From Escherichia coli (GTDB lineage Bacteria; Pseudomonadota; Gammaproteobacteria; Enterobacterales; Enterobacteriaceae): 64,000 nt of DNA. Below, piece after piece: positions 59,501-62,500 of this stretch; the stretch's first letter is position 1, and each line of letters opens with the position of its first letter. The stretch lies in NCBI RefSeq assembly GCF_036507355.1, contig NZ_AP027877.1, one strand, 5' to 3'. The position numbers were made by a program.

Positions 59501-62500
59501 CCAGCGACTTTGCGTCCGGTCGGCAATGACGCCCATCACCGGGTCGGAGATGGCATCAAACACGCGCAGTGCAATAAACAGCGTGCCAACCAGCGCCGGA
59601 GTTAATCCAAAAACGTCGGTGTAGAAAAAGGTGAGAAAATTCATGATCAGGCAAGTTATTACGGTGCCGCCTGCGTCACCCAGGCCGTAGCCTATTTTTT
59701 CCCGTACAGATAACGCATCGTCAATTTTACCTTTAGCGATATCAGCGGTAGTAATCGGTGTAGAGGTCATAGATATTCCTCGTGAATAGGGAGCAATTTT
59801 TAGTTTTATTGAAATGACCTGATTAATTCTGCCGTGAACGGGAATATCAACAAGGCGAGAAAAGAGTAAAAAAAGGTGACGATTCCGACCTGAATTTAAA
59901 AGTGTGAAATGGATCAGGTGAAATTAATATTTTTGATTAATAATCAAAAGGTAATGTGTTTAATCATTAATGAATAAGCGGGAAATTACATATCAATGCT
60001 CGAATTATCCATGACGTTACCGATTAAAGTGCAAAATGGTGGATTATTTATTTCCCGTGGCGTAGGGAGGCATCCTGCAAGGCGGCTGGAGTCATGGGAA
60101 ATTATCTTTGTCGAAAAAGGTCGATTAACGATTCAGGAAGAAGAACGGATATTTCTGGTCGATGCGGGAGAGAGTTTATTACTCTGGCCGAACCGACAAC
60201 ATGTTGGGGTGGAGGATTTTCCCGCCGATCTCAAATTTTACTGGCTGCATTTTGAGGTTAAAGCGCCGGACAACGACCCTCGCTGGCTTACTCATCTTAG
60301 CGTGCCGCAACAAACGAAGGTTGTCGATCCGCAGGCGCTGGTGGCCCTGTTTCGCCAGTTCTTAAGCGAACAGGAAAAGCATCAACGCACTCCGGCGCTG
60401 GAGTTTATTGTGCTGCTCATTTTGCAGCAGCTCACCCGTGACGCGCGTCTTGATGAACAGGCCGATGGCGCAGGCACCACCCTTGCCTGGAAAGCGCAGA
60501 AACTGATCCGCACGCAATATCATCGCCCGCTTTCTACGGCGCTTCTGGCCCGCGAGCTGTACTGCAATGCCGATTATCTTGGGCGCGTCTACCGGCGGGT
60601 GTTTCATCTGACGTTAACAGAAGCAATCCATCGCCAGCGGGTGCGCGAAGCCGAAAAGCTGTTAATTAGCGAAGCGCGATCGCTCACGGAAGTGGCGGCG
60701 TTGTGCGGGTTTAATGACGTTGGCTATTTCCGGCAGATTTTTCGCAAACACACCGGTTTAACGCCAGCAGCGTGGAAGCGGCGTTACAGCAAGGAACATA
60801 TCAATTCGTAGTGCCGTGTCGATTTCGCTTTCGACATCACGTCTGAAACAGGTGGGGGAGAAAAATCTCCTGAAACCACTGCGTGAAACCGCGCAGGCTA
60901 TTTCTAATGAACTGGGATTTACTGTCAGGGATGACCTGGGCGCGATCACATAACGCTTTGGACAAGTGCCAAAACTTTAACATTTCCTTCGTTGGATCAA
61001 AGCAGTAGGGACGCGCTCTCTGGCACTCTGCTGTTTTAGTGCAAAGGAGTGATCATGAACCGGTTTATTATTGCGGATGCGACGAAATGTATCGGTTGCC
61101 GTACCTGTGAAGTGGCTTGCGCAGTGTCGCATCAGGAGAATCAGGATTGCGCTGCGTTGTCACCAGACGAGTTTATTTCCCGTATTCGTGTCATTAAAGA
61201 CCACAGCTGGACCACGGCAGTAGCCTGTCATCAGTGTGAAGATGCACCGTGCGCGAATGTCTGCCCTGTTGACGCGATAAGCCGCGAACATGGGCATATT
61301 TTCGTTGAACAATCACGTTGCATTGGCTGTAAAAGCTGTATGCTGGCTTGCCCGTTTGGTGCGATGGAGGTCGTTTCTTCGCGCAAAAAGGCGAGGGCGA
61401 TTAAGTGCGATCTGTGCTGGCATCGGGCGACGGGACCGGCCTGTGTTGAAGCCTGCCCGACAAAGGCGTTGCAGTGCATGGATGTCGAGAAAGTGCAGCG
61501 GCATCGGCTACGTGTTTGAAACGTTTTCCGGCGTTTCTCAACGCCGGAATAGTGCGCTTTGTTTATGCCAGATGCGGCGTAAACGCCTTATCCGGCCTAC
61601 AAATTCTTCCAAATTCAATATATTGCAGAAATCATGTAGGCCTGATAAGCGTAGCGCATCAGGCAATTTTTAGTGACTTTCAGCCCAGGCTCTTTCTATC
61701 TCTTCCGCCAGAATCTTCACCCCCGCCTCAATTTTCTCCGGCTCTGGTACGTAGTTCATGCGCATACATTGATGCGTATGCGGCCACGGTTTATCCAGCC
61801 CTGGGAAGAAGTTGTGCCCCGGCACCATCAGCACGCCGCGTGCTTTCAGGCGCTGATAGAGCTGCTCGGTCGTAATGGGCAAATCCTTAAACCATAGCCA
61901 GAGGAAAATGGCTCCTTCCGGTTTATGAATCAGGCAGCGATCTTCCGGTAAATAGCGGCGAATGATGGCGATAGTTTCCTGAACACGCTGGTAGTAAAAC
62001 GGTTTGATGACTGTTTCAGACAGGCGCAGCAGATCGTTACGCTTAATCATTTCACACATCATCGCCGGACCAATACCGCCAGGTGCCAGGCTGATAATGC
62101 CGTTCATATTGGTGATGGCGGTGATGATTTTTTCATTGGCGATGATAATGCCGCAGCGGGAGCCAGGTAGACCCAGCTTGGAAAGACTCATGCACAGCGC
62201 GATATTCGGATTCCATAGCGGGCGCGCTTCACTGAAGATGATACCCGGGAACGGGACGCCATAAGCGTTATCAATCACCAGCGGAATGCCGTGTTGATTC
62301 GCCAGCGCGTCAAGCTTCAGCAACTCTTCGTCAGTAATCACATTGCCTGTTGGATTCGTCGGCCGGGAGACGCAAATCATCCCGGTTTCTTCGCCAATAT
62401 GCAGATGCTCAAAATCGACGTGGTATTTAAACTGGCCTTCAGGCAGCAGTTCAATATTCGGACGCGCAGAGACAAACAGATCTTCTTCCAGTCCGGCGTC

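Follow-up and report, generated by a model that had tools for sequence, protein, structure and literature searches.

The window, a 64,000-nucleotide stretch of Escherichia coli chromosome, contains a divergent locus in which an AraC-family regulator gene (plus strand) is separated by a 225-bp spacer (59771-59995) from an operon (minus strand) encoding a GPH-family transporter and a GH127 protein. The spacer is AT rich, with 31.6% GC compared to 49.6% for the window. The gene starts are those annotated in RefSeq for E. coli genomes with the same or nearly the same sequence, and several RefSeq genomes match the region around the spacer with 100% identity. The locus is an accessory cassette of E. 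coli, found in 2,323 of 5,426 complete genomes and once per genome. In K-12 the cassette survives only as remnants, and for this reason its regulation has not been studied; a literature search for regulation of the locus found no regulatory study. The GH127 gene was reported to cosegregate with invasiveness among IBD E. coli isolates (PMC11879602). The nearest named family of the regulator is AraC, at a distance (61 bits versus a cutoff of 208; 23% identity to AraC itself), and its score against the MelR model is lower still (38.6 bits versus a cutoff of 253). The transporter matches MelB/GPH models, and L-arabinose is the predicted product of GH127 action. Features of the locus are collected in Table 1.

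Table 1. Genes, conserved blocks, and predicted regulatory elements of the locus; counts are of 74 aligned spacers
Feature	Position	Strand	Remarks
GH127 (β-L-arabinofuranosidase family) gene	56389-58383	-	3′ of the symporter gene in the operon
GPH-family (MFS_2) sugar:cation symporter gene	58370-59770	-	Profile matches
Transporter-gene ribosome-binding site GAGGAA	59776-59781	-	CTCCTC/TTCCTC kept beside the ATG
Conserved block ACC.GATTAATTCTGC	59817-59832		T59828 and G59831, 74/74
Predicted -10 CAGAAT (CA[G/A]AAT), transporter-GH127 operon	59826-59831	-	Third-best -10 score; start ~59816-59819
Conserved block CAACAAGG	59848-59855		CAAG, 74/74
Predicted -35 TTGTTG, transporter-GH127 operon	59848-59853	-	C59851, A59852, and A59853, 74/74 (TTG on the minus strand)
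Candidate AraC-family regulator site, AGGGAAAAGTATAAAAAG.TGACGATTCCGACCTGA (plus-strand consensus)	59858-59894	-	Most conserved block
Conserved block AAAAGTATAAAAAG.TGACGATTCCGACCTGA	59862-59893		GTA invariant; ATTCCGAC, 74/74 save T59884 (73/74)
Alternative -10 TATACT (TTTACT in E. coli)	59865-59870	-	Best mean -10 score
Conserved block AAA.TGTGA....GATC	59899-59915		TGTGA and GATC, 74/74
Probable CRP site AA.TGTGA-N4-GATC	59900-59921		Center 59910.5; left half 5/5, right half TCAGG 3/5
Perfect 9+1+9 palindrome TTTTGATTA-A-TAATCAAAA	59931-59949		9-nt arms, 1-nt center
Asymmetric 11-mer TTAATAATCAA	59937-59947	+	A59940 and A59942, 74/74; T59944, 73/74
Predicted -10 AATAAT, regulator gene	59939-59944	+	Second-best -10 score; start ~59950-59952
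Small palindrome tcattaatga	59964-59973		5+5; chance level, no column conserved
Conserved AGCGGGAA, probable ribosome-binding region	59977-59985	+	5′ of the regulator ATG
AraC-family regulator gene	59996-60811	+	271 aa; cupin-type AraC_binding domain and HTH_18

Conservation of the spacer across Enterobacterales

The regulator protein was searched against one genome per species, which yielded 79 loci from Escherichia, Citrobacter, Salmonella diarizonae, Enterobacter, Klebsiella, Raoultella, Kluyvera, Lelliottia, Kosakonia, Pantoea, Buttiauxella, Cedecea, and others. At 73 of these loci the same transporter-GH127 pair is transcribed divergently from the regulator gene, the product of which is 62 to 94% identical to that of the window, across a spacer of 215 to 383 bp. 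The window spacer was aligned with these 73 orthologous Enterobacterales spacers (74 sequences), and every column was counted. Most alignment columns were saturated, and a set of invariant blocks stands out against them. No orthologue has an indel anywhere within 59826-59915. The TGTGA element lies 91 to 94 nt from the regulator ATG in all orthologues, and its distance to each of the other conserved blocks does not vary. Variation in spacer length is confined to the stretch from the transporter ATG to about 59816, which corresponds to the predicted leader of the operon. There was no Rfam match at an E value of ≤1, and this leader gave no consensus fold (z = -0.9); the conservation is therefore considered to act at the DNA level. 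A generic scan of the spacer found no terminator-like site and no consensus sigma-70 promoter on either strand; lack of a consensus sigma-70 promoter is expected for activator-dependent promoters.

Predicted promoters and protein-binding sites

Voting for the best sigma-70 promoter in each orthologue gave results scattered in AT-rich DNA. This procedure was replaced by position-wise scoring, in which a textbook -10 matrix was applied at each aligned position on both strands and the scores were averaged over the orthologues. The three top conserved candidates were, in descending order, TATACT (minus strand), AATAAT (plus strand), and CA[G/A]AAT (minus strand).

AATAAT matches the consensus at 5 of 6 positions, lies 51 nt 5′ of the regulator ATG, and is the predicted -10 element of the regulator gene. 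Its positions 2, 4, and 6 are invariant or nearly so (Table 1), and these include the two bases looked for in a sigma-70 -10 element, the A at -11 (A59940) and the T at -7 (T59944). No conserved -35 element was found for this promoter; 59916-59921, where such an element would fall, shows no conservation, and the TGTGA site overlaps it. Conservation extends past the hexamer to T59937/38, C59945-A59947 (~52 to 69 of 74), and A59953 (66/74), further than a -10 element by itself would require, and could accommodate a protein site that overlaps the hexamer. In the Buttiauxella group, TACACT was considered as the counterpart of AATAAT, but the MAFFT alignment placed it there through a forced 19-nt gap, and it was not used as support; the distance from the CRP candidate to the -10 element would be 47.5 bp in that group versus 28.5 bp elsewhere, a difference that does not correspond cleanly to two helical turns.

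For the operon, TTGTTG and CAGAAT are separated by a 16-bp spacer that is fixed in length and free in sequence. This arrangement has the classic signature of a promoter and is probably the operon promoter, the model that we prefer. Within the -10 hexamer, T59828 is invariant and T59830, T59827, and A59826 are each present in 73 of 74 sequences. The weak spots of the model are an unfavorable C at -12 and a -35 element that matches the consensus at only 3 of 6 positions.

The TGTGA half-site of the original prediction was confirmed at 59903-59907 and is invariant in all 74 sequences, as is GATC at 59912-59915. The CRP core is TGTGA-N6-TCACA with A/T flanks, and GA precedes TC in the ideal consensus. 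The left half of the candidate and its AA flank are invariant, and only TC is conserved in the right half; over 59900-59921, 14 of 22 positions match the 22-mer CRP consensus. The invariance of the GA before TC exceeds what CRP sites usually conserve. Within the 64 kb, the pattern TGTGA-N6-TCA marks five sites (8 matches versus 1.9 expected, counting both strands), and the other four all lie in the yibI-mtlA spacer, which we take to be the multi-CRP mannitol promoter. We consider it likely that the TGTGA-N4-GATC element is a CRP site. Measured from the predicted starts, its center would lie at -40.5/-41.5 for the regulator gene, with a start at 59951/2, and at about -91.5 to -92 for the operon. 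CRP activates from -41.5, from -61.5, or, with a coactivator, from about -92; the distances between the site and the -10 elements are 1 bp shorter than those of a canonical -41.5 site.

Between this site and the predicted operon promoter lies the most conserved block of the spacer (59858-59894), about 37 bp long and spanning approximately -39 to -75 of that promoter. Seven of the eight columns of ATTCCGAC (59882-59889) are invariant and the eighth, T59884, is conserved in 73 of 74 sequences; GTA at 59866-59868 is also invariant. Operators of the AraC/XylS family consist of two half-sites of ~17 to 18 bp beside or overlapping the -35 element of the activated promoter. Solely by its position, size, and invariance, the block is a candidate site of the local regulator. 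A profile self-comparison of the block for repeated half-sites gave only weak pairs driven by A tracts. An AraC araI2-like target at 59877-59893 (TGACGATTCCGACCTGA) was rejected since its 12/17 match was reached by 21% of shuffles. Also rejected was a GACCTGA direct repeat (59816 and 59888) that might have formed a looping pair as in ara, because its promoter-proximal copy reads ACCTGAT in just 13 of 74 sequences.

Two other assignments of these elements were weighed. The operon could instead be read from TATACT, so that transcription would begin near 59858 and the leader would be 88 nt long; in that case the ATTCCGAC block, within the spacer/-35 region, would be an operator for a repressor or a MerR-like protein, and the blocks at 59848-59855 and 59817-59833 would be downstream operators. 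TATACT has the top mean conserved -10 score, and five of its six positions are near invariant (74, 74, 74, 74, and 73 of 74). The least conserved position, however, is the critical A at -11, present in 62 of 74 sequences and replaced by T in Escherichia, whose genes stay intact. This hexamer also lacks a TTG-type -35 element, would place CRP at about -52.5, on the wrong face for activation, and would leave invariant blocks in fixed register within a leader that has no conserved structure. We regard its use as the operon promoter as rather unlikely. The second assignment concerns the TGTGA-N4-GATC element, which could be part of the target of the local regulator and not a CRP site. Its right half fits TCACA at TC alone, yet the preceding GA is invariant, and TGACGATTCCGAC bears a loose likeness to TGTGA(TTTC)GATC. 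That likeness requires a 1-nt gap and unconserved columns, whereas the left half with its AA flank is an exact and invariant CRP consensus, the pattern elsewhere in the window marks only the mtlA promoter region, and the position of the element suits both predicted promoters. Assignment to the local regulator is thus distinctly unlikely, and the CRP reading is retained below together with the TTGTTG-N16-CAGAAT promoter.

The palindromes

The small palindrome, tcattaatga, is present in the spacer, one base to the left of where it had been placed. Arms of at least 5 nt occurred in 80% of 5,000 dinucleotide shuffles of the spacer, and the repeat sits in a stretch without conservation among the 74 sequences. 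It is a chance palindrome, and its proposed role as an operator is not borne out.

The other proposed operator, ttgattaataatcaa at 59933-59947, was correctly positioned and proved to be the core of a longer perfect palindrome of 9+1+9 (Table 1). Arms of at least 9 nt arose in 1.0% of 5,000 dinucleotide-preserving shuffles of the spacer. In the 64-kb window, 7 perfect palindromes with such arms were seen versus ~1.25 expected by chance, and the other 6 are GC-rich hairpins. The large AT-rich palindrome is thus mildly unusual compared to chance.

The conserved part of this palindrome is only TTAATAATCAA, that is, the center and the right arm. The left arm drifts, with G59935 being G in 15 of 74 sequences and A59936 being A in 40, whereas their right-arm partners are fixed (C59945 in 65 and T59944 in 73). 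The two pairs are complementary in only 20 (pair 5, G59935:C59945) and 34 (pair 4, A59936:T59944) of the 74 sequences, and no compensatory changes at these pairs were found among them. At least 7 contiguous pairs are formed in just 10 of 74 sequences, from Escherichia, C. amalonaticus, some Enterobacter, and Yokenella; the natural Klebsiella/Citrobacter bases at 59935/59936 are CG. The element, the 11-mer included, is absent from 10 loci, belonging to Buttiauxella, Cedecea, Atlantibacter, and one labeled Citrobacter freundii. Six divergent E. coli alleles all retain the palindrome, but since they differ from the window at merely 1 to 7 spacer positions, they contain too few single nucleotide polymorphisms to say much about it. 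With a drifting left arm opposite a fixed right arm, a symmetric (dimer) operator at 59931-59949 is not supported. The original prediction named lack of conservation in orthologous promoters as a result that would count against it; across these promoters, the symmetry is not kept and the right half is. The large palindrome would mostly represent the predicted -10 region of the regulator promoter together with a lineage-specific left arm.

A true symmetric operator of a dimeric regulator, at least in the Escherichia and Enterobacter lineages that have both arms, is one alternative. The protein could be the local AraC-family regulator, which would then control its own promoter, or one of the CRP/FNR type. 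The rarity of the repeat in the shuffles, its invariance in the six alleles, the presence of two arms in several nonsister genera, and the overlap with the predicted -10 element and start, a classical position for a repressor, are in line with this reading; TTGAT...ATCAA also resembles FNR half-sites. The FNR consensus, however, is TTGAT-N4-ATCAA, and an FNR site was rejected because the spacer here is N5, one base too many, and its left half is unconserved. About one such palindrome per 64 kb is expected by chance, invariance among alleles means little in a species as uniform at this locus as E. coli, and the two inner pairs lose complementarity in most sequences without compensation. Moreover, -10 elements are inherently pseudosymmetric and AT rich, and AT-rich symmetry around them is common (PMC12825309). 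In the regulator promoter, A59940-N3-T44 similarly reads as a -10 element both ways, as AATAAT (plus strand) and GATTAT (minus strand), with the difference that the palindrome is centered on 59940 and the -10 symmetry on 59942. We therefore judge a symmetric operator to be very unlikely. It is even harder to credit, though conceivable, that the completed palindrome is a lineage-specific operator for a second dimeric protein in Escherichia, C. amalonaticus, and some Enterobacter; this protein may be CRP/FNR-like and tolerant of N5 spacing, or the local regulator itself bound head to head. If so, these lineages would have an extra input lacking in most other genera.

The conserved right half could also be explained if TTAATAATCAA, with the conserved WAA at 59952-59954, is mainly a protein-binding half-site and not just a -10 element, either an autoregulatory site of the AraC-family regulator, comparable to MelR site R and AraC O1, or a site of the IHF type. 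The IHF core consensus is WATCAA-N4-TTR, and the E. coli sequence, AATCAA-N4-TAA, fits 12 of 13 positions. Conservation past the hexamer, described above, is consistent with a half-site, and MelR controls its own gene through a site that covers the transcript start (PMC2377442). An IHF site was rejected, since the TTR positions are A rich and not conserved in the orthologues (59952 is A in 43 and T in 26; 59953 is A). The conserved block at 59858-59894 contains no matching copy of the 11-mer. A half-site as the main function is doubtful, and it would be compatible with the -10 reading, not exclusive of it. Fur, ArgR, and ArcA sites were rejected for a poor match by eye to their consensus sequences, and a TGATTAAT direct repeat (59820 and 59934) was rejected because its second copy spans the unconserved G59935/A59936.

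The palindromes also lie ~115 to 150 bp from the predicted operon start, a distance unfit for an AraC/XylS-family operator. The sequences that most resemble a regulator target would lie outside both palindromes, at 59858-59894.

A model of the divergent control region

From the observed conservation pattern, fixed spacings, palindrome asymmetry, and rarity of the CRP-like pattern, we favor, with somewhat more confidence than doubt, the view that the spacer is a compact control region for divergent transcription, of the araBAD/melAB type and rigid in register. The central CRP site probably serves both promoters. The operon is probably read from the weak TTGTTG-N16-CAGAAT promoter, with an AraC-family dimer that would occupy 59858-59894 and CRP that would sit at about -92. 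Transcription of the regulator gene probably starts from the AATAAT promoter, where CRP, at about -40.5/-41.5, would overlap the -35 region. The large palindrome would be the -10 region of the latter promoter, possibly with TTAATAATCAA as an overlapping autoregulatory half-site, and in Escherichia and several further lineages the left arm would make it symmetric by coincidence. The small palindrome would be noise in the 5′ leader. The original prediction of a divergent control region is upheld in this respect, and TGTGA is very probably a CRP-type half-site for both transcripts, as proposed; the assignment of the palindromes as operators is not upheld.

In araBAD and rhaBAD, CRP binds at about -92, and the AraC-family dimer binds between CRP and the -35 element. 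The cassette resembles araC-araBAD in the predicted central CRP site between divergent promoters and the ~37-bp block between CRP and the -35 element, as well as in having AraC as the nearest named family of its regulator and L-arabinose as the predicted GH127 product. It differs in that the regulator is only 23% identical to AraC and falls below the AraC model cutoff and in that the araI2 match is at chance level. The likeness to melR-melAB lies in an AraC-family regulator divergent from an operon for a glycosidase and a GPH symporter (MelR, MelA, and MelB) and in a regulator promoter with a predicted CRP site over its -35 region and a possible regulator site over its own start. For melR transcription, CRP must occupy the -35 region, and autoregulation by MelR takes place at a site over the start (PMC2377442). 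Unlike in mel, where the starts are 237 bp apart, the predicted starts here are ~132 bp apart, only one CRP-like site is present, no repeated 18-bp regulator sites were recognized, the transporter gene precedes the hydrolase gene, and the regulator is distant from MelR. The control region of the cassette is an uncharacterized member of the conventional CRP plus AraC-family class and not a new mechanism.

The cassette is also carried by many Enterobacterales, and it probably allows its carriers, E. coli included, to use plant β-L-arabinofuranosides. For its regulation, the phylogenetic footprint provides a testable map of predicted CRP, regulator, and RNA polymerase sites, and it points experiments away from the eye-catching palindromes.

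Invariant and variable positions in the spacer

Among 74 sequences (the window and 73 orthologous spacers), GATC, a Dam methylation site within the CRP-like site, was invariant (74/74), a level of conservation exceeding that predicted from the CRP consensus alone. Position 59869 was T in 62 of the 74 and A in 7, Escherichia included; A at this position changes the conserved minus-strand TATACT, an alternative candidate for the operon −10 element, to TTTACT. One E. coli genome, that of strain ETEC4071 (H34), matched spacer positions 99 to 225 only (compared stretch, window 59771-59868). 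This partial match suggests a truncation or insertion at ~59869, which would leave the control region without its operon side.

In the Buttiauxella/Cedecea/Atlantibacter group (loci L043, L057, L059, L061, L063, L065 to L067, L071, and L075), the TTAATAATCAA region upstream of the regulator ATG was replaced by unrelated sequence of equal length. The replacement sequence contains a conserved TCTACACT 55 nt past TGTGA, and all operon-side blocks remain invariant in these spacers.

Other palindromes and CRP-like sites in the window

The yibI-mtlA spacer carries a cluster of four TGTGA-N6-TCA sites, three of which are near-perfect palindromic CRP-like sites; this is the known multi-CRP mannitol promoter. 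The longest perfect palindrome in the 64-kb window, AAATAAAAAGGCTGCATTATGCAGCCTTTTTATTT, has 17-nt arms and looks like a bidirectional terminator.

Positions of features within the window
Feature	Position	K-12 counterpart or status
Longest perfect palindrome	10971-11005	
yibI-mtlA spacer	43468-43644	
Segment inside GH127 gene	56497-56686	ysaD
GATC	59912-59915	
3′ end of AraC-family gene	60708-60823	ysaC
Regulator-side flank	60813-61629	plaR (yiaJ) 5′ part and entire yiaK-sgbE operon missing from window

Cassette remnants and apparent flanking deletions

Two segments of the cassette have counterparts in K-12 pseudogenes that lie between sgbE and yiaT: ysaD matched the interior of the GH127 gene (89%), and ysaC matched the AraC-family gene at its 3′ end (95%). 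On the basis of these matches, ysaD and ysaC are leftovers of the regulator-transporter-GH127 cassette; K-12 has therefore lost the transporter gene and the spacer, together with most of both the GH127 gene and the regulator gene.

In strain FDAARGOS_943 (L001 3596-4760), which is otherwise near-identical, an IS1A element lies beside the cassette, between truncated yiaY and truncated yiaT (MipA).

Alignment with K-12 also showed that the window lacks sequence on the regulator side, where only a 3′ remnant of plaR, annotated as a partial IclR gene, remains downstream of the regulator gene. The window type and the K-12 type appear to derive, by alternative deletions, from an ancestral array in which both cassettes were present.
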